Shown piece by piece: positions 55,104 through 64,000 of a stretch of DNA of 64,000 nt. A model generated the notes under the pieces. It ran no database searches, was not told the DNA's origin, and worked only from the letters and a program-made list of their open reading frames with translations. The stretch is taken from contig CAKPHC010000006.1 in the NCBI GenBank assembly GCA_934155645.1, positions 30,625 through 94,624 on the forward strand. Direction: 5' to 3'. Each line of letters opens with the position of its first letter. Within the stretch, counting starts at the first letter, position 1. This DNA is from an uncultured Bacilli bacterium. Lineage in GTDB: Bacteria; Bacillota_I; Bacilli_A; RF39; UBA660. Position numbers and translations under genes: made by a program.

Positions 55104-57521
55104 TTATAAATTTTCTGTATCTAAAACAATTTTATTAATTTTATAATCTTTTTCTATATCATTTAAAATTAAATTTTCTATAAATAAGGTTGCTTTAAAA
55201 TCCTTTTTGGATTGTTTAATTGCATCTTTTACTCCAGTCGAACAATCTATATCTAATTCTTTAACAACTGTTTTTAATGACAAATTGTTACTAGATTTTT
55301 CACCTCTTACTGCACTTATTACTTCACACATTAAATCACCATTTAACATTTCACTATCAAATGAATAATTTAAAGGTTTAATTTCAGTGATATGTATTGA
55401 CTTCATATCGTGATATATGTCTTGATATATTTCTTCAGTAATAAACGGAAAGAAAGCACTGAAGTCTTGTAATAATTTATAAAGTAATATATAGACTGTC
55501 TTTTGCCCTGAATATCTTGCTTTTTCTCCAAATTCTTCTGGTCTGTATAATCTGTGTTTAACTATTTCTATATAATTATCACAAAAATTCCAGAAGAACT
55601 TTTCTAAAATATTTAAAGCTAAGCCTATTTCATAATTATCTAAATACTTTATATACTCCTTTTCCATCTTAATAAAGTTGCCTAAAATCCACTTGTCAAC
55701 ATATTCAAAATCATCAAATTCTTTATCTTGATAGTCTTGAAGGTGCATTTGAATAAATTTTGAAACATTCCATATTTTATTAATTAACTTTTTGCCACGA
55801 AGTAATGTTTCTTCATTATACGTGATATCTGTTCCTAACCTTCCAGAAGCAGCCCAATATCTTACAACATCTGCTGAATATTGTTTTATTAAATCTAAAG
55901 GTTCAACATTCGAATTTCCCTTACTTTTACTTATTTTTTCACCTTTGTTTGCCATAACAAATCCTGAAATCATAACGTTGTCCCAAGGTCTAATACCAAA
56001 ATGATAATAACTTTTTACGATAGTGTAAAAATCCCATGTTCTTATTATTTCAGATGCATTACTACGCAAACTCATAGGTTTTAAAATTGATTCATAATTA
56101 TCTTTTTCACCATATTTCATGTTAATAAGTGGAGTAACTGAAGAAGTTGCCCAAGTATCCATAACATCAGACTCAGGTATGAATTCTTTACATCCACACT
56201 TAGAACATTTTTCAATTGGTGGATTATCAGTTAGTGGATTAACTGGCAATTGTTCTTTTGATGCGAATACAGGTTCTCCACATTCTTTACAATACCATAC
56301 TGGAAATGGCACCCCAAAGTATCTTTGTCTTGATATACACCAGTCCCACGCAACATTATTAACCCATTCTTCATATCTATTGTGCATATGTGTTGGATAC
56401 CAATTAATTTCGTTTCCAATTCTTAAGAAATCTTCTTTATGATTCATTATATCAATAAACCATTGTTTCATTACTGAATATTCCACTTCTCTACCACATC
56501 TTTCATGCGTTTGTACTTCGTGTTCCAATTCCTCAATTTTAACAATATATCCACCAGCTTGTAAATCATCTACAATTTGTTTTCTTGCCTCTTTTATTTT
56601 TAATCCACCATAGTTAGCTACAGAATCGATTATTCTTCCATCATTAGTAAAAATGTATTTAAGTGGTAAGTTGTATTTTTTCCACCACTCTATGTCTGTT
56701 TGATCTCCAAATGTACAGCACATAACAACACCTGTACCTTTATCAATCGCAACTTTTTCATCCCCCATAATTGGAACATTAACATCAATTACTGGAATAT
56801 GAGCAGTTTTTCCTATTAAATGCTTGTTTTTCTCATCATTAGGATTTACGAACACGCAAACAATAGCAGGCATCAATTCCGGTCTTGTTGTAGCAATAGT
56901 AAATTTTTCACCATCTTCAACTGTTTCAAAATTTACATAATTAAATGTTGTTTTAATAGTTTTGGTTTCCAATTCAGCCTGAGCAATAGATGTTAAACAC
57001 TCATTACACCATAATGCAGGGCTTTCCTTGTGATAACAATGTCCTTTTTCTATTAAATCTAAAAATGAATTTTGACTTATTTTTATTGTAGATGGGCTTA
57101 CTGTTTTGTAATACATATTCCAATCCGTACTTACACCAAGTCTAGAAAATAAATCCTGAAATTCTAATTCGTACTTATCTGTTGTTTCGTAACACAATTT
57201 TGAAAAATCTTCTCTGCCAATCTCATGAGCTTTTTTACCTTGTTCTTTTTCTACTAATCTTTCGCTTGGCAAGCCATTATCATCAAAACCAAATGGATAA
57301 AACACATTATATCCTCTTATTCTTTTGTATCTTGCAATCATTTCTGCTTGTGAATAAGAAAATATATGTCCAATATGTATTTTGCCATTAACTGTTGGAG
57401 GAGGTGTATCTATTGAATATACCTTCCTTTGATCAGGTTTAAATTCATATATTTTGTTTTCTTTCCAATAATTTAACCATTTTTCTTCTTTTTCAAGTGA
57501 ATTATACTTCTTATCTAACAT
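55104..57521 (-). CDS. valS: Valine--tRNA ligase, type-2 (archaeal/actinobacterial-like), copy A, T-box controlled
   Basis: SIDTPPPTVNGKIHIGH (HIGH), GFDDNGLPSERLVE, TTRPE, GTGVVMCCTFGDQTD (editing domain), WCISRQRYFGVPFP, KISKSKGN (KMSKS). Confidence 0.85.
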   Translation of the reverse strand: MLDKKYNSLEKEEKWLNYWKENKIYEFKPDQRKVYSIDTPPPTVNGKIHIGHIFSYSQAEMIARYKRIRGYNVFYPFGFDDNGLPSERLVEKEQGKKAHEIGREDFSKLCYETTDKYELEFQDLFSRLGVSTDWNMYYKTVSPSTIKISQNSFLDLIEKGHCYHKESPALWCNECLTSIAQAELETKTIKTTFNYVNFETVEDGEKFTIATTRPELMPAIVCVFVNPNDEKNKHLIGKTAHIPVIDVNVPIMGDEKVAIDKGTGVVMCCTFGDQTDIEWWKKYNLPLKYIFTNDGRIIDSVANYGGLKIKEARKQIVDDLQAGGYIVKIEELEHEVQTHERCGREVEYSVMKQWFIDIMNHKEDFLRIGNEINWYPTHMHNRYEEWVNNVAWDWCISRQRYFGVPFPVWYCKECGEPVFASKEQLPVNPLTDNPPIEKCSKCGCKEFIPESDVMDTWATSSVTPLINMKYGEKDNYESILKPMSLRSNASEIIRTWDFYTIVKSYYHFGIRPWDNVMISGFVMANKGEKISKSKGNSNVEPLDLIKQYSADVVRYWAASGRLGTDITYNEETLLRGKKLINKIWNVSKFIQMHLQDYQDKEFDDFEYVDKWILGNFIKMEKEYIKYLDNYEIGLALNILEKFFWNFCDNYIEIVKHRLYRPEEFGEKARYSGQKTVYILLYKLLQDFSAFFPFITEEIYQDIYHDMKSIHITEIKPLNYSFDSEMLNGDLMCEVISAVRGEKSSNNLSLKTVVKELDIDCSTGVKDAIKQSKKDFKATLFIENLILNDIEKDYKINKIVLDTENL

Positions 57522-57540
57522 TTTAATTCCTTCCTTTCAT

Positions 57541-57775
57541 AAAAAAAAGTCCATCCTAATCAAAGGATGAACTTGAAGTCCACGGTACCACCTTAATTCA
57601 TATTATTAAAATAATATGCAACTTAATGCTTTAACGCAGCTATACGTAAATTCCTACTAATAATTCAGAAAATCTGCTCCCAAGCTACTTTCAATTACCT
57701 ATTATGCAAATTTACACCAATCATTTGCTCTCTATAATAAAATTAATAATCTACTTCTCTTGTTCTCAGCAATTG
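57541..57775 (-). promoter_or_regulatory. T-box riboswitch leader (valine) with intrinsic terminator
   Basis: Minus strand, in 5'->3' order: Stem I elements TTGCTGAGAA (GA motif), AGAGAGC and GGTGTAA (distal loops); specifier region TTGAAAGTAGCTTGGGAGCA; AATTAAGGTGGTACCGTGG (T-box); then GTTCATCCT-ttgatt-AGGATGGAC + T8 (terminator). Confidence 0.85.
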
Positions 57776-57780
57776 CAAAT

Positions 57781-57809
57781 ATTATATCAAGTTTTCTTTA
57801 TATATTCAA
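57781..57809 (-). promoter_or_regulatory. Promoter of the valS-A T-box leader
   Basis: TTGAAT-17 nt-TATAAT, with TG two nt upstream of the -10 (TGATATAAT). Confidence 0.55.
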
Positions 57810-57843
57810 TAAAATTAGAAAAATTACAAAAAAAAGATAAGTT

Positions 57844-60306
57844 TTATTGATTTTTCTTATCTTTCATAACAAGTTTCATAACTTTTGTATCTTCTATGTA
57901 ACTGTCTTCAATCTTTTTACCAACAATTGATACTTCAGTTACATCACTCTTTTCAACGTCAATATGTTCAGCACGAGTACAATTTTGAATATCTAAAATT
58001 GAATCTTTTAAACATCTGATATTATCTAATGATGTTGAAATTTTTAATTCTTCAATTGGTTCTTTCATTGATAAATTACGTTCAGTTTTATATTTTCGTA
58101 CATCTCCAACTACTTTTTTCATTGCATTACCAAATTCTATATACTTTTTATCATAAGGTAACTCTGTAAATTTGCTTGTAGAAAGGAGCTCATCCTTAAA
58201 CTTAGATTTATATAATTCTTGATAAATATATTCTGTAATATGTGGAACAAAAGGTGAATACATTTTTAATACTTCAAGGAATACAGTTGATAATGTTTGT
58301 TGAGCAGCTTTTTGGGAATTGCCATATTTATTATCAGGATTATATAATCTTTCCTTTACCATTTCTAAATAATTATCACACAAATCATTCCAGAAAAATT
58401 TGTCAATTTCTTGTCTTGCTAATCCCATTTCATAATTTTCCATTTGTTGTTGGTATTTTTCAAACGTTTCATGGCATCTAGAGATTAACCATTTATCAAT
58501 AGATTGTAATTCCGTTTCTTTATTTAAATCAGCGTCTTTGATTTGCATATCTACAAACTTAGCAGAATTCCATAGTTTATTCATAAATCTTTTTGAACTT
58601 TCTATATCTTTTGTATCAAACCATGTATCTGTTCCTAATTTATTTGATGCAGTCCAATATCTTATCATATCAGCACCATAAGTATCCAATAAATCATTAG
58701 GAGACATTTTAGCGTTATTTTTGGATTTGCTTATTTTCTCACCTTTTTTAGCAAGTACAAATCCTGAAATCATCAAATCTTTCCAAGGCACTTGCCCAGT
58801 ATGATATAAACTTTTTACAATTGAATAAAATGTCCATGTTCTTATTATTTCATGTGCATGACTTCGCATACTCATAGGATATAAAAATTCTCTTTCGTCA
58901 TTTTCACCATATTTCATATTAATAAACGGTGATACGGATGAAGTTGCCCATGTGTCCATTACAGCTGTTTCAGGTATGAAGTTTTTACATCCACACTTAC
59001 AAGCAGCATGTGGATTATGTTCTAATGGATTTAATGGTAATTCCTTATCTTCCGGAATCATTACATCGCCACATTCTTTACAATACCATATTGGGAACGG
59101 TACTCCAAAATACCTTTGTCTTGATATACACCAATCCCATTTTAAATTGTTAACCCAATCTAAATATCTATTTTTCATAGATTCTGGGTGCCAATTAATT
59201 TCATCTGCAGCTTTAATCAATTCATTTTTTATACTTAAAATATCAATATACCATTGTGGAGAATTAATTATTTCTATTTCGTTTCCGCATCTTTCATGCG
59301 TACTTACAGAGTGTTCAATTTTATCACTTTTTATTAATAGACCTTGTTTTTGTAACTCTTCAACAATCTTCATTCTTGCATCGAGTGTTTTCATCCCACC
59401 AATTATAGCAACATCTGGGTTGATTGTTCCGTCAGCTTGCATTATTCTTTTTATTGGAAGATTATATTCTTTTTGCCATTCCATATCAGTTTGATCGCCA
59501 AATGTACAGCACATTACAACGCCTGTACCTTTGTTTATTGCAACTCTTTCATCTGCAATGATTGGAACCTGATTGTTATATAATGGAACGATAGCAGTTT
59601 TTCCTATTAAGTTCGTATATCTTTCATCACTAGGATTTACAAATATTGCAACACATCCACCTAGAAATTCTGGTCTCGTTGTAGCTATTTGCAAATTTTT
59701 ATTATCAACTGAAAAATTAACATAATTAAAATAACTTTTTACGTCTTTATTTTCAAGTTCTGCTTGTGCAATAGAAGTTTGGCAACAAGGGCACCATAAC
59801 ACTGGCATTTCTTTTCTATATGCCTTTCCTTTTTTTACTAGATCTATAAAAGATCTTTGTGAAACTTTTCTAGATAATTCATTAATGGTATCATAACTCA
59901 AATCCCAATCGGCACTAATTCCTAAACGTTTAAATAAATCCTGAAATTCTTTAATATATTTATCTTTTGTAGCGGTACATTTTTCAATAAACTCACTTCT
60001 AGGTAAATCTTTTGCAAATATTCCTTCTTCTCTTTCAACTAATCTTTCCGTTGGCAAACCATTATCATCGAATCCAAATGGATAATATACATTTTCACCT
60101 TTTAATCTGTGATATCTAACAAGCATTTCGGATTGAGTGAAGGAAAATATATGTCCAACATGTAATTTACCACTTACTGTTGGTGGAGGCGTATCAACTG
60201 AATAAACTGGTCGTTCATCAACACCTTTAAATTTATAGGCTTCTTTTTCTTCCCATAGTTTTTGCATTTCTTTTTCATTTTCAAGACTAAATCTTTTGTC
60301 CAACAT
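57844..60306 (-). CDS. valS: Valine--tRNA ligase, type-2, copy B (no T-box)
   Basis: SVDTPPPTVSGKLHVGH, GFDDNGLPTERLVE, GTGVVMCCTFGDQTD, WCISRQRYFGVPFP, KISKSKNN. About 60 percent identity to copy A by eye. Confidence 0.85.
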   Translation of the reverse strand: MLDKRFSLENEKEMQKLWEEKEAYKFKGVDERPVYSVDTPPPTVSGKLHVGHIFSFTQSEMLVRYHRLKGENVYYPFGFDDNGLPTERLVEREEGIFAKDLPRSEFIEKCTATKDKYIKEFQDLFKRLGISADWDLSYDTINELSRKVSQRSFIDLVKKGKAYRKEMPVLWCPCCQTSIAQAELENKDVKSYFNYVNFSVDNKNLQIATTRPEFLGGCVAIFVNPSDERYTNLIGKTAIVPLYNNQVPIIADERVAINKGTGVVMCCTFGDQTDMEWQKEYNLPIKRIMQADGTINPDVAIIGGMKTLDARMKIVEELQKQGLLIKSDKIEHSVSTHERCGNEIEIINSPQWYIDILSIKNELIKAADEINWHPESMKNRYLDWVNNLKWDWCISRQRYFGVPFPIWYCKECGDVMIPEDKELPLNPLEHNPHAACKCGCKNFIPETAVMDTWATSSVSPFINMKYGENDEREFLYPMSMRSHAHEIIRTWTFYSIVKSLYHTGQVPWKDLMISGFVLAKKGEKISKSKNNAKMSPNDLLDTYGADMIRYWTASNKLGTDTWFDTKDIESSKRFMNKLWNSAKFVDMQIKDADLNKETELQSIDKWLISRCHETFEKYQQQMENYEMGLARQEIDKFFWNDLCDNYLEMVKERLYNPDNKYGNSQKAAQQTLSTVFLEVLKMYSPFVPHITEYIYQELYKSKFKDELLSTSKFTELPYDKKYIEFGNAMKKVVGDVRKYKTERNLSMKEPIEELKISTSLDNIRCLKDSILDIQNCTRAEHIDVEKSDVTEVSIVGKKIEDSYIEDTKVMKLVMKDKKNQ

Positions 60307-60340: not shown

Positions 60341-60368
60341 ATTGTAGCATAAAATTAATTTTAGTCAA
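60341..60368 (-). promoter_or_regulatory. Candidate promoter of valS copy B
   Basis: TTGACT-16 nt-TGCTACAAT on the minus strand, about 35 nt upstream of the AAGGGGG RBS. Confidence 0.45.
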
Positions 60369-60449: not shown

Positions 60450-61367
60450 TTATATTTTTTTTAAAATTTTAGCATGATTATCGTTGGTAAAACTTCTTTC
60501 AAATAAACTCAATTGCTCTTTCTGCCTTTCTGTGTCTTTTCTTGATAAATCATTACTAACGATATACAACCAAGATGTTGTTTTAACTAAATCTAAAATG
60601 TATATTTTTTTTAATAAATCAACGTCAATTTGCTCAGTTATGTTTGGCTCATAATTATTTTTAAATGAGTTCCAAAAAGACAGTGAATTATACACTTCAT
60701 TGGAGTTTATTAAATGATTCCACATTAGCCTCTGGATATCATATTCTTTTGGAGACATTCCCATTCCATCTGTGTCTATTAATTTATACACCCCATTGAT
60801 AGACATTACGTTGAGATTATATGGATCATTATGGCATAAAACCATGTCGCTTTTTAAATGTATATTCTCTACATCCGTTTCTTTAAATAATTTTAAAATT
60901 TTTGATTTTATTTCATGATTCATTAATTCTTTCGCTGCATTTAATAAATTAATTGTTTGATTATAAAAATCATTTGAAAAACAAACCGCATATTTATTAT
61001 TTGCACTTATACTGTGAATACTACTTAAGCATTTAGCCCACCATATTGAATCTGGGTTATTTGTTATTTCTTTTAATTCTTCGTATAAAAGAACTATTTT
61101 ATCTTTAAATAATGATATATATTTATTGTCTTTCGTAAGGATTGGTTTCTCAACGCTATCTATATTTGATAAATCAGAATACAATACATTAAGATCTTTA
61201 CAATGAATTCTATTTTTATCTACTAATTTTATAAATAAAGAGCGATTGTGAAACTCTATCTTAAAAATGTGAGGATATTGTTCTAACTGACATATTTTAA
61301 ATGAAGATACTTCTTTTTTAAGATTATAGTTATTAATTATATGTTGAAATAATAGTTCTTCTTTCAT
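60450..61367 (-). CDS. APH/choline-kinase/CotS-type phosphotransferase-fold protein
   Basis: Brenner-type motif VLCHNDPYNLNVM and metal-binding LIDTDGMG. Confidence 0.65.
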   Translation of the reverse strand: MKEELLFQHIINNYNLKKEVSSFKICQLEQYPHIFKIEFHNRSLFIKLVDKNRIHCKDLNVLYSDLSNIDSVEKPILTKDNKYISLFKDKIVLLYEELKEITNNPDSIWWAKCLSSIHSISANNKYAVCFSNDFYNQTINLLNAAKELMNHEIKSKILKLFKETDVENIHLKSDMVLCHNDPYNLNVMSINGVYKLIDTDGMGMSPKEYDIQRLMWNHLINSNEVYNSLSFWNSFKNNYEPNITEQIDVDLLKKIYILDLVKTTSWLYIVSNDLSRKDTERQKEQLSLFERSFTNDNHAKILKKI

Positions 61368-61391: not shown

Positions 61392-62387
61392 CTAGTTTTT
61401 TGTTTTTGAAGAGTCATATAAAATTTTTGCTCTTTTCTTAACTGCAATTTCAGATATAGGTTGAAATTCATTTGTTGATGAAGCCCATGATTTATATTTT
61501 TTTAGATTTTCACGCATTTCTTGCCATTTCTTTTCTTCACTACCACTATGTGGTTCATGCTTTATATGATATGAACCAACTTCCGTCGGAATAACAAATA
61601 AATGCTTTGATACCGCTAAAAAACCAAGTGCAATATCTTCTCCTCCCCATCCTATAATCCATTCTGGGAAACCACCTATTTCAATAAATTCACTTCTTGG
61701 AATAGCTAAAGTATGTGATATTACCATACAAGCTAAGTCCCAAAATCCTATAGTAAAATCTTTTCTCATACCTAAATTTCTGAATTTATTACTTTGTTTA
61801 TATATTTCTAGAATTTTATCTTTTTTACAATTGTTGTATGATGATCCACAATTAGAAACTGTCAAATCAAGAAATTCATCACTAATAGGTGTAGCTATTC
61901 TCCAATCGTTAAAATAATTAGATTCCTTCCACTTTTCTAAAGTAGGAACATCTTCATAATCAACAGTATCTCTGAATCCTACAACTAATCCTTTATAATC
62001 GTTTGCACTTAATAAATTTAAAGCATTTGGTATAAACTTAGGTGATAAAATCATATCCTGATCTAAAAACAAAATAATATCTCCAGTTGCATAAATTGCA
62101 CCCGTGTTATTTGCAGCAGGAGCATTGCGGTTTTGGTCATGCTGAACTATGAGTAATTTAAAATTATATTCTCCCATAATTAAATTAGGATTGTCATCGT
62201 GGCTATCAAAAACAGTAATTACTTCATAAATAAAATTTAATTTAGACAAATGCATTAATACTTCTTTTAAATATCTAGGATGATAAACTGGAATTACTAC
62301 ACTAATTTTTTTACTTTCATAATTATTATTACTTGGGTTTTTCCAATTATTTATAAAAGATAGTGAATTGTTATATAAGTTACCCAT
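61392..62387 (-). CDS. Family 2 glycosyltransferase (GT-A) with GT7C-like C-terminal motif
   Basis: ISVVIPVYH, DxD as FLDQDM, and GWGGEDIALGF. Confidence 0.75.
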   Translation of the reverse strand: MGNLYNNSLSFINNWKNPSNNNYESKKISVVIPVYHPRYLKEVLMHLSKLNFIYEVITVFDSHDDNPNLIMGEYNFKLLIVQHDQNRNAPAANNTGAIYATGDIILFLDQDMILSPKFIPNALNLLSANDYKGLVVGFRDTVDYEDVPTLEKWKESNYFNDWRIATPISDEFLDLTVSNCGSSYNNCKKDKILEIYKQSNKFRNLGMRKDFTIGFWDLACMVISHTLAIPRSEFIEIGGFPEWIIGWGGEDIALGFLAVSKHLFVIPTEVGSYHIKHEPHSGSEEKKWQEMRENLKKYKSWASSTNEFQPISEIAVKKRAKILYDSSKTKN

Positions 62388-63231
62388 TACTCACCTCGTC
62401 AATGTCACTTTCTATTAATTTAAATGCTTTATATAAAATATTTCTTTTAGTGATAAATTCCTCTGATGTTACTGCGTTAAATAATAAATGTTTTTTTAAC
62501 AGTTCTAAAAACTTTGCTTTATTGTTCCAATTAGTTCTTAATAGTAACGCCTCATTCCACTTATCTCCAGGAAAATGAGTGTCACCTATTGCAAAAGCCA
62601 TTACCATTAAGCATCTAATTATTCTTGCTGAGATTGATTCATATAAGAAAATGTCTGCTCTTTCGGTTGCTGCTAAAAGTTTACCATTTATTAGAGATTT
62701 TGCTGTTTCAAAATATTCAAGTTTTAATGACAAAAATAACTTTTTAGGAAAATCCATAGCTATTTTTTTTAGCTCTAATAATTCCTCTGTTTCTTTAATC
62801 AAAATTTTTTCGGATGCTACTGAAGCCGCTAATCCACTGGGCATATAACCTAATCCTAAATCATGACAATCTTGAATCGGAGCTACATTTCCGCTTTCAT
62901 AATAAATTATTCGATTTTTTATGTCGTCTATATTTCTATAACCAATTTCAAAATATAAATCCTCAATTACAAAAAATGAATGTGGACCCCATGGCATGTC
63001 GTTTTCCCATAAAAATGTATCGGTCCTCTTGTGTTTTGCATTAAACTTCGCTAAGGCTTTTGTTATACTATCTACTGAAGGTGCACCTTTATGTGTATAA
63101 AAATACATTTCTACATCTGATTTTTCATCTTCTAAACCATTCATTCTTGATCCCCCTAAAGTAACACCACAACAATCTGGAATCAAAGATGATATTTCTT
63201 CCGCAATATCCATTATTATTTTTTTATTCAT
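62380..63231 (-). CDS. Pol-beta-superfamily nucleotidyltransferase-domain protein with a helical C-terminal domain (DUF4037-like?)
   Basis: GVTLGGSRMNGLEDEKSDVEMY matches the G[SG]..x(9-12)..[DE]x[DE] NTase signature. The start is 21 nt after the rel stop, and the stop overlaps the GT2 start by 8 nt. Confidence 0.6.
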   Translation of the reverse strand: MNKKIIMDIAEEISSLIPDCCGVTLGGSRMNGLEDEKSDVEMYFYTHKGAPSVDSITKALAKFNAKHKRTDTFLWENDMPWGPHSFFVIEDLYFEIGYRNIDDIKNRIIYYESGNVAPIQDCHDLGLGYMPSGLAASVASEKILIKETEELLELKKIAMDFPKKLFLSLKLEYFETAKSLINGKLLAATERADIFLYESISARIIRCLMVMAFAIGDTHFPGDKWNEALLLRTNWNNKAKFLELLKKHLLFNAVTSEEFITKRNILYKAFKLIESDIDEVSNG

Positions 63232-63252: not shown

Positions 63253-64000
63253 TTATTTTCTATTAAATTCTTTTATTTTTCTTTTAGCTAAACTCGTTTG
63301 AGCTTTATCTATCCAATCTTCTCTCGGACCATATGATAGTTCATCAGTAACAATCCTAACTCTATCCTTATTTCTTAATACATAATCTATTGGTACAAAT
63401 TCATCATTTACAAATGCCCCTACCATTGTATTTCCTATATCCGTATGTATTTTATATGCAAAATCTATTGGTGTTGCCCCTTTAGGAAGTTCTATGATAT
63501 CTCCTTTTGTTGTATATACATATACTCTATCTGCAAATAATTCATTTTTTACTTGATTCACAAATTGTTGATTATCTCCAAACATAGAATTGATTTCTGT
63601 TAATGATTTGAAAAACTGAAATTTTTGTTTTAAATCATCTTGCATTATATCCCTTGCCTTTCCCTTTTGTTCATCCCAATATGCTGTTAATCCAAATGAT
63701 GCTACTTTATCCATATCAAACGTTCTTATTTGGGTTTGAACGAGTCTATCATCTGGTCCAAAAACTGTTGTATGTAAACTTTGATACATATTTGTTTTAG
63801 GATTACAAATATAATCTTTAAATTTATCGTTTATTGGGTGATATTCTTGATGAATCATTCCCAAGGTATAATAACAATTTGCTACTTCATCCACCATTAT
63901 TTTTAATGCTAACAAGTCATGTATATCAGATAATTTATGACCCTCACTTAATCTTTTATATATACCATAAATATTCTTTGTTCTTATTTTTATTTCATTT
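63253..64000 (-). CDS. rel: RelA/SpoT-homolog (Rel), C-terminal part; ends shortly after the TGS domain; 5' part beyond window end
   Basis: The frame is open to the window edge: ..NIYGIYKRLSEGHKLSDIHDLLALKIMVDE..YQSLHTTVFGPDDRLVQTQIRT (synthetase domain), then VYVYTTKGDIIELPKGATPIDFAYKIHTDIGN..VNDEFVPIDYVLRNKDRVRIVT (TGS), then only ~40 more residues. Confidence 0.85.
   Translation of the reverse strand, partial: NEIKIRTKNIYGIYKRLSEGHKLSDIHDLLALKIMVDEVANCYYTLGMIHQEYHPINDKFKDYICNPKTNMYQSLHTTVFGPDDRLVQTQIRTFDMDKVASFGLTAYWDEQKGKARDIMQDDLKQKFQFFKSLTEINSMFGDNQQFVNQVKNELFADRVYVYTTKGDIIELPKGATPIDFAYKIHTDIGNTMVGAFVNDEFVPIDYVLRNKDRVRIVTDELSYGPREDWIDKAQTSLAKRKIKEFNRK

Follow-up and report, generated by a model that had tools for sequence, protein, structure and literature searches.

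The stretch analysed here, called the window throughout, comprises 64,000 nucleotides of contig CAKPHC010000006.1 (positions 30,625 to 94,624) from assembly GCA_934155645.1 of an uncultured Bacilli bacterium. It carries two tandem genes for valyl-tRNA synthetase (ValRS), which we label copies A and B, and directly upstream of B a block of enzyme genes that we term the cassette. Copy A occupies positions 55104–57521 and encodes 805 residues; copy B occupies positions 57844–60306 and encodes 820 residues. Both lie on the minus strand and are separated by a spacer of 322 bp. The two proteins are archaeal-like (type-2, PRK13208-type) valine-tRNA ligases, with NF009687 scores of 995.6 bits for A and 1009.3 bits for B against a curated cut-off of 738 bits. 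The class I catalytic (tRNA-synt_1), editing and anticodon-binding (Anticodon_1) domains were found in A and B alike, and PF00133, PF13603 and PF08264 were matched in both. The class I signature reads KIHIGH in A and KLHVGH in B (HIGH versus HVGH), and KISKSK is present in both. The editing-domain and other motifs quoted in a preliminary description of the locus, GTGVVMCCTFGDQTD and WCISRQRYFGVPFP, likewise occur in each copy. These results bear out that description, made from the nucleotide letters alone, in its account of two complete type-2 ValRS reading frames. Its estimate of about 60% identity between them was too high, the value over 795 residues being 51%.

Conservation was assessed in an alignment of A and B with 42 other type-2 ValRS representatives. 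Each copy retains 94 of the 96 columns that are conserved at 90% or more. Residues aligned to the valine pocket and to the HIGH and KMSKS motifs of Thermus thermophilus ValRS (PDB 1GAX) are identical in A and B. Replacements at otherwise conserved sites are I37V, Y56F, A63V, L214F, A217G and D448A in the B clade and T86S and C220I in the A clade, several of these clade-specific changes mapping to the region of the TTRPE editing motif. The comparison of active and editing sites proposed in the preliminary description thus brought out no pocket difference. Remodelling of the B active site was rejected, as the six clade changes are mostly conservative and none falls at a pocket residue mappable to 1GAX.

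The ratio of nonsynonymous to synonymous substitution rates (ω) between the source genome and its nearest relative (L028) was 0.037 for A and 0.057 for B. Across the full set of pairs, A gave values of 0.04–0.13 and B of 0.06–0.17, with synonymous divergence mostly saturated. Both complete genes are under purifying selection, with A the more tightly constrained. The preliminary description had allowed for a decaying duplicate, which the conserved columns and the ω values rule out. Taking decay together with an assembly artefact, we put the probability that one copy is spurious at next to nothing: both genes are full-length, ω does not exceed 0.17, and the tandem pair was independently assembled in many metagenomes on contigs of up to 1.4 Mb.

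The two copies differ in their predicted regulation. Directly upstream of A is a valine T-box leader (57547–57776, minus strand). The RF00230 match, at 57560–57776, scored 135.3 bits against a gathering score of 93 and covered model positions 1–219, i.e. the full length; this was the sole Rfam family to reach threshold in the window. The specifier GUA at 57688–57686, in a loop that reads GAA-A-GUA-G in the model alignment, fits tRNA-Val(UAC), the single tRNA-Val of the genome. The UGGU bulge is complementary to the A73-CCA end of that tRNA (discriminator A73). The core of the leader lies at about 57594–57581, and an 11-bp terminator hairpin with a U-run follows at 57574–57547. A promoter-like site for the leader, TTGAAT-17-TATAAT with a TG extension, is located at 57781–57809 (minus strand) and is a consensus match only. 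Through this T-box, copy A is predicted to be switched on when tRNA-Val is uncharged.

The Rfam scan of the window found no T-box upstream of B. Copy B has a sigma-70-type promoter-like site, TTGACT-16-TGcTACAAT, at 60341–60368 (minus strand), about 35 nt ahead of a strong Shine-Dalgarno sequence. The site is kept in 6 of 8 aligned B lineages and looks constitutive. A canonical valine-type T-box ahead of A, and a sigma-A-like promoter without a T-box ahead of B, are what the preliminary description had reported. The locus very probably encodes two functional ValRS enzymes with split regulation. In Bacillus subtilis, thrS/thrZ and tyrS/tyrZ are duplicated synthetase genes that are not adjacent and of which both copies have T-boxes. 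Copies A and B resemble these pairs in that one amino acid is served by a pair of isoenzymes and uncharged tRNA is sensed by a T-box, but differ in that the T-box is confined to A and that B is adjacent, constitutive-looking and linked to a cassette.

The source genome (1.19 Mb, 28% GC, 94.6% complete) is that of a small-genome member of the class Bacilli; related records, labelled "uncultured Bacilli bacterium", come from human, rabbit and ruminant guts. Its valS content is A and B only, with no bacterial-type valS, and it has one tRNA-Val(UAC). The copy number in relatives was examined, as the preliminary description had advised, by scoring the two best valS candidates in each of 401 genomes of the family (labelled G; individual loci are labelled L). 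Most genomes have a single copy: about 299 carry one bacterial-type valS alone, and about 77 (some 20%; a few are fragments) carry a single type-2 gene orthologous to A. A and B occur together only in the source genome (G000) and in G258. In one further genome, G225, the only ValRS shares 58% identity with B; its gene (L042; G225:C6:43266-45725) has a T-box-like leader before it and proS after it, and no cassette.

In phylogenetic analysis A falls together with the type-2 genes that occur as single copies in the family (100% SH-aLRT). B stands in a clade of its own, the sister of which is the lone ValRS of G225 (100% SH-aLRT). The tree gives no resolution for the branching order of the A clade, the clade of B and G225, and a few other representatives. 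Copy B is not a recent duplicate of A. That the B lineage serves as the only ValRS in G225 argues that B is a genuine tRNA-charging enzyme. A-only species are interleaved with A+B species in the A tree, which indicates that B has been lost or gained repeatedly. For example, both B and a cassette are missing from a close A-only relative (G156), although its dUTPase-A segment shares 87% identity with that of an A+B lineage. Copy A is the core, housekeeping gene of the lineage and B an accessory one. A lineage-wide duplication with identical regulation, the other circumstance that the preliminary description had set against its reading, does not describe this family, in which relatives mostly have one copy and only A has the T-box. 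As for a horizontal origin of one copy, the GC content of A, B and the cassette (25–30%) is that of the genome and gives no signal of recent foreign origin.

The usual valS operon of the family consists of a T-box, a gene for an HD-domain protein and valS, and in species with an A-type gene this gene stands in that operon instead of the bacterial-type one. The HD-domain protein (about 250 residues) is the first product of the T-box-controlled operon in most of the family and accompanies either type of valS (L008, L009, L010, L018, L020, L022, L023 and L025); the gene is also present at L040:1765-2514 and L144:2017-2808. Bacterial-type valS has been patchily replaced in situ by the archaeal-like type in some 20% of the 401 genomes, and all three states are found within single genera (L008-L012 versus L015-L026). 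An A+B strain of the sister species carries, at L027:20658-22281 (minus strand), the HD gene followed by a 290-residue N-terminal remnant of bacterial-type valS that is 70% identical to the gene of G006. This remnant, a displaced resident synthetase gene in the course of decaying, and the A-type genes within the operon indicate that type-2 valS is displacing the resident gene within the family. In the same strain a gene for a 466-residue helix-turn-helix protein is inserted between B and the T-box.

The cassette in the window is a trio of genes on the minus strand. An ANT/KNTase-like nucleotidyltransferase (NTase; 62380–63231, 283 residues) shows weak Pol-beta NTase and DUF4037 signatures; a family 2 glycosyltransferase (GT2; 61392–62387, 331 residues) has a Glyco_transf_7C signature; and an APH/choline-kinase-like kinase (60450–61367, 305 residues) shows weak APH and choline-kinase signatures. 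The trio follows closely, after a gap of 21 nt, on a relA/spoT homologue whose 3' part occupies 63253–64000 (minus strand; RelA_SpoT and TGS) and which forms a conserved left flank in most B lineages. A 143-bp spacer that contains the B promoter separates the trio from B. The best fold matches of the NTase model (pLDDT 77) are kanamycin ANT(4'), lincosamide LinB and spectinomycin AAD(9) nucleotidyltransferases, with a TM of about 0.5. The kinase model is of low confidence (pLDDT 61), and its best matches, to APH(9), the amicoumacin kinase AmiN, LicA and APH(2''), are indicative only. Pfam and NCBIfam scans and fold searches revealed no aminoacyl-tRNA-using transferase in the trio, only the NTase, GT2 and kinase, and PADLOC gave no match for the trio or B. 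The set in this genome resembles drug-modifying enzymes more than a synthesis pathway. The earlier characterization of the genes upstream of B as an operon of small-molecule-modifying type is a fair one at the level of folds. The relA/spoT homologue of this clade is only about 476–479 residues long and comprises HD, synthetase and TGS domains and lacks C-terminal regulatory ones (window, L027-L034, L038 and L147).

The surroundings of B were examined in at least 17 lineages in which B is 71–100% identical to that of the source genome. In every context a block of genes for cytoplasmic enzymes stands directly upstream of B, and B is always the gene directly downstream of the variable cassette. 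Four cassette types were distinguished. Type 1 consists of the ANT-like NTase, GT2 and APH-like kinase with or without RmlA, RmlB and a DegT aminotransferase (source genome, G258, L038, L144-L146 and L150-L154). Type 2 consists of a C26 amidotransferase, a CoA-ligase-like protein, a SufS-like protein, a U32 peptidase, a radical SAM enzyme, a GCS2-like ligase and a RimK-type ATP-grasp protein, with or without DAHP synthase and extra radical SAM enzymes (L027-L033, L039, L064-L069 and L147). Type 3 consists of a PanD-like protein, a radical SAM enzyme and a B12-radical SAM enzyme (L034). Type 4 consists of a PP-loop ATPase, a small RRE-like protein, two radical SAM/SPASM enzymes, a GNAT protein and an amidohydrolase (L040/L041). 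On the left the cassette is bordered by relA, A, a dCMP deaminase gene or a NUDIX gene, depending on the lineage. The right flank is always B, usually followed by A behind its T-box. Many type-2 cassettes end in the gene for the DAHP synthase, which exceeds the NCBIfam cut-off (L028:9171-9917 and L031:9147-9887; genomes of 1.2–1.4 Mb). In type 4, an uncalled 44-residue cysteine-rich reading frame (L040:5008-5142, plus strand) lies just upstream of the genes for the PP-loop ATPase, RRE-like protein and two radical SAM/SPASM enzymes, and could encode the precursor of a peptide of the ribosomally synthesized, post-translationally modified kind (RiPP).

The association of B with a cassette holds in both directions. 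The site upstream of B is occupied in all the B contexts, and every cassette encountered in the genomes screened is accompanied by B. A scan of 185,579 species genomes for a type-2 marker found the whole cassette in 6 Bacilli metagenome-assembled genomes only, with B coming after it each time. The type-2 cassette was not found in other taxa with another ValRS, 25–31% identical homologues of its GCS2-like ligase in Clostridia standing alone. The type-1 kinase was found only in the two B-bearing genomes of the 401. Known anti-phage defence was considered and set aside, as PADLOC gave only generic radical-SAM/pVip and desulfurase/DndA-SspA similarity for the cassettes; carriage by phages was set aside as well, since scans of viral contigs found neither B nor the NTase.

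The backbone of the locus and the cassette have different histories. In nucleotide sequence relA, B and A are 90%, 91.5% and 91% identical to those of the sister species and 72–80% identical to those of more distant lineages. This parallel divergence indicates that the backbone is vertically inherited; the cassette is not. Between L027/L028 and G258 the segment from B through the T-box to A is 98.6–99% identical, whereas relA is only 88% identical and the cassette is of type 2 in the former and type 1 in the latter. Near-identical strains thus exchange the cassette. Capsule and O-antigen loci are likewise strain-variable cassettes between conserved flanks. The B locus is similar to them in that unrelated gene sets alternate at one site between near-identical strains and divergence rises in the flank. 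It differs in that the products look cytoplasmic, that there is no flippase, polymerase or exporter, and that the fixed right flank is an accessory aminoacyl-tRNA synthetase (aaRS).

We consider it likely that B and the cassette are functionally coupled and form a unit. The pattern could also arise with no such link, from a regulatory division of labour in which B provides a constitutive floor of ValRS, A is the starvation-inducible enzyme, broadly in the manner of thrS/thrZ or tyrS/tyrZ, and accessory cargo is swapped through the conserved flanks at a recombination hot spot upstream of B. This would account for the T-box on A only and the conserved promoter on B, and cassette exchange does look like homologous replacement between conserved flanks. 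The B tree that follows the species, the single origin of all B lineages, and a composition of B, A and cassette that fits the genome are also as expected under such a scheme. Nevertheless, it would not predict that an empty site and a B-less cassette are both missing, nor that the cassette-B junction is kept while the left flank changes. About 77 related species manage with A alone, and the tighter constraint on A indicates that A is not a rarely used spare. Finally, the trio adjoins ValRS in other, deeply separate lineages (discussed below). We regard a division of labour with no cassette link as fairly unlikely.

The association of the trio with ValRS extends far beyond the B clade. A metagenome scan with an alignment of the NTase gave 15 loci, five of them belonging to the B clade. 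At L155 and L156, a type-2 ValRS gene, its product 51% identical to A, has upstream of it the genes for an APH-like kinase, NTase, GT2 and DegT, to which L156 adds a U32 peptidase. At L157 and L162, the gene for an 850-residue ValRS is followed by those for GT2, NTase, GDP-mannose-dehydratase-like or DegT proteins and an APH-like kinase. Contigs L159 and L160, called archaeal from aRF1 alone (eRF1 domains 1–3), show the order ValRS, GT2, NTase, the ValRS gene of L160 being convergent with GT2-NTase-APH. L163 (61% GC) carries a bacterial-type ValRS gene 1.9 kb from the NTase gene. L161 (8.8 kb) is the only locus to show the trio with no ValRS in reach, and two other loci were too short to judge. 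The archaeal aRF1 gene on the ValRS-GT2-NTase contig L159 is interrupted by an intein (L159:5286-6779; Intein_splicing and HINT domains).

The trio-linked ValRS genes fall into four separate deep lineages of the ValRS tree, beside ordinary representatives. This rules out a single mobile clade of ValRS plus trio that spread between phyla. As a control we inspected eight more distant DUF4037-type NTases from other Bacilli genomes, and in none of the eight (0/8) was a ValRS, GT2 or APH-like gene present within 8 kb. The four deep lineages and the negative controls make it unlikely that the link between trio and ValRS reflects chance or a single hitch-hiking event.

As to what B does for the cassette, we rate immunity or resistance by target replacement as the most likely mechanism, while holding it only tentatively. 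The cassette would make or handle a small molecule that interferes with ValRS, the ANT-like NTase, GT2 and APH-like kinase being enzyme types that modify hydroxyl groups of antibiotics. Copy B would be insensitive and maintain the charging of tRNA-Val, and A would remain the efficient, feedback-regulated enzyme. This mechanism is rated highest because it accounts for the constant presence of B beside a cassette and for the loss of B along with it, because the trio of the source genome resembles drug-modifying enzymes, and because strain-level turnover of cassettes is typical of antagonism loci.

Several observations weigh against this explanation. B usually has its own promoter, so that co-transcription with the cassette would not be required. 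The B tree tracks A and relA, and thus the species, rather than the cassette type, and one B clade is common to four unrelated cassettes, which is unexpected for specific immunity genes. All B lineages derive from one ancestor, and adjacency within the clade therefore counts as one historical event followed by maintenance. Neither a Pfam-recognisable exporter nor a recognised core biosynthetic enzyme was found in any cassette. As judged from the alignment, the mappable valine- and ATP-pocket residues do not differ between A and B, and the changes specific to B at conserved sites are few and mostly conservative. The trio-linked ValRS genes of the archaeal and distant contigs are lineage-typical and probably sole copies, a situation more in line with a metabolic or tRNA-linked partnership than with immunity. 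Of the proposal in the preliminary description that a divergent second synthetase is the signature of resistance or self-immunity, the link of an accessory copy to variable cassettes stands and matches the genomic pattern of a cluster-associated aaRS; resistance or immunity itself is one of several candidate mechanisms, and the like pockets, the species-following B tree, the one B shared by four cassettes and the probable sole ValRS beside the archaeal trio agree at least equally well with a biosynthetic or tRNA-linked role.

Aminoacyl-tRNA synthetases that are encoded in clusters and insensitive to an inhibitor are established for IleRS (MupM/IleRS2, mupirocin), ThrRS (BorO, borrelidin), TrpRS (indolmycin) and SerRS (albomycin). 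Like these, B is a divergent, complete extra copy besides a housekeeping enzyme, and it adjoins and co-occurs with an enzyme block. Unlike these, it is specific for valine, for which our literature search found no described case; no known biosynthetic core or exporter was found beside it; and four unrelated cassettes share one ValRS clade that evolves with the species. A parallel within the class is the IleRS1/IleRS2 pairs of Bacilli, in which one enzyme is a fast housekeeping synthetase and the other is mupirocin-resistant. The two systems have in common a pair of full-length class Ia synthetases of different clades in one Bacilli-class genome, different regulation, and proposed kinetic or resistance trade-offs. 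Copies A and B differ from the IleRS pair in that both are archaeal-like, arranged in tandem, with a T-box on one only and the extra copy bound to a variable cassette. Cluster-encoded synthetase copies also give immunity to RiPPs that target aminoacyl-tRNA synthetases, as in the biosynthetic gene cluster of the tiarins with its ArgRS (preprint 10.64898/2025.12.02.691738).

The same preprint gives two usual explanations for the presence of an aaRS gene among clustered enzyme genes, inhibitor immunity and, second, a tRNA-dependent step (10.64898/2025.12.02.691738). Copy B might accordingly be dedicated to the supply of activated valine, as Val-tRNA-Val or enzyme-bound Val-AMP, for the chemistry of the cassette, insulated from the T-box control of A. 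The RmlA/RmlB/DegT or GMD/DegT genes found with the trio could, for example, make a 4-amino-4,6-dideoxyhexose that is then N-valylated. The strict two-way association of B and cassette would be expected if B supplied valine, as would the lack of an exporter in the cassettes and the apparent completeness of B as a tRNA-charging enzyme. In the archaeal and distant contigs, moreover, the ValRS adjoined by the trio and aminosugar genes is probably the only one, and the genes frequently form a single operon that runs ValRS, GT2, NTase. Against such a role, no aminoacyl-tRNA-using transferase (Fem/GNAT type, cyclodipeptide synthase or LanB/PEARL type) was recognisable in the cassette of the source genome or in types 2 and 3, a GNAT protein occurring only in type 4, and all four unrelated cassettes would need valine. 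We consider a dedicated valine supply unlikely.

Two characterized proteins illustrate what recruitment of a synthetase to a pathway can look like: the SerRS VlmL is cluster-encoded and takes part in valanimycin synthesis, and MshC is a CysRS relative that acylates an amino sugar. The B locus resembles these cases in having an extra synthetase gene within an enzyme cluster, and DegT, RmlA/B and GMD aminosugar genes often accompany the trio. It departs from VlmL-type clusters in that an aminoacyl-tRNA transferase was recognised in none of the trio proteins, and from MshC in that B retains its editing and anticodon-binding domains.

The families present in the cassettes bring to mind a further role, in which tRNA-Val, or ValRS itself, would be modified by the cassettes and B would be adapted to that altered partner. 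Every cassette type includes families known from tRNA modification, among which are GT2, GNAT, radical SAM, SufS-like desulfurase, PP-loop ATPase and the U32 peptidase (the prephenate-dependent TrhP family, encoded beside a DAHP synthase). NCBIfam TrhP is a prephenate-dependent tRNA U34 hydroxylase, to which the U32 protein of L156 gave a weak match (E = 4e-7), and many type-2 cassettes end, as noted, in a DAHP synthase. The cassette proteins all look cytoplasmic, and the link with ValRS spans bacteria and archaea. However, the same families are equally common in natural-product clusters. The U32 proteins score far below the TrhP cut-off, that of L028 having no NCBIfam match. As identity elements of tRNA-Val, ValRS uses A35 and C36 rather than position 34, and the T-box of A still reads the same tRNA. 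Modification of tRNA-Val or of ValRS is, in our estimate, very improbable.

A broader scheme, which we find rather doubtful, would bring the distant loci and the B clade together. ValRS would have an undescribed partner pathway, made up of the NTase/GT2/APH-like trio and the usual 4-amino-4,6-dideoxyhexose genes and extending from archaea to gut Bacilli. The pathway might act on valine, Val-tRNA-Val, tRNA-Val or ValRS, its product being, for example, an N-valyl aminosugar or a glycosylated tRNA-Val. In the Bacilli studied here the partnership would have been handed to the paralogue B, which would free the site for strain-specific cassettes and leave ordinary translation to the copy under T-box control.

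Few synthetases are duplicated as seldom as ValRS (PMC5388404). Our literature search found no description of a bacterial ValRS pair, of ValRS2/valS2, of a ValRS resistance or self-resistance gene, or of a cluster-linked ValRS, in keeping with the preliminary description, which knew of no well-characterized example. Should B confer immunity or resistance, the cassettes of these abundant human-gut Bacilli would point to the first natural ValRS-directed compounds and to the enzymes that detoxify them. If B feeds or partners the cassette, there would be a valine- or tRNA-Val-dependent pathway that nobody has looked for. In either case the comparative signal is unusually clean, as the extra copy and the strain-variable cassette are never apart and one cassette type is tied to ValRS across domains.

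An A-only sister lineage, very abundant and with an A that is 90% identical (L035-L037:1-9528), shows a different neighbourhood. There valS comes after serS and a run of genes that encode three S51 peptidases, two GNAT acetyltransferases, an S66 peptidase (LD-carboxypeptidase/MccF family), an ASCH protein and a long NUDIX protein. The NCBIfam matches of these proteins are generic only, and the run is reminiscent of aminoacyl-nucleotide detoxification.

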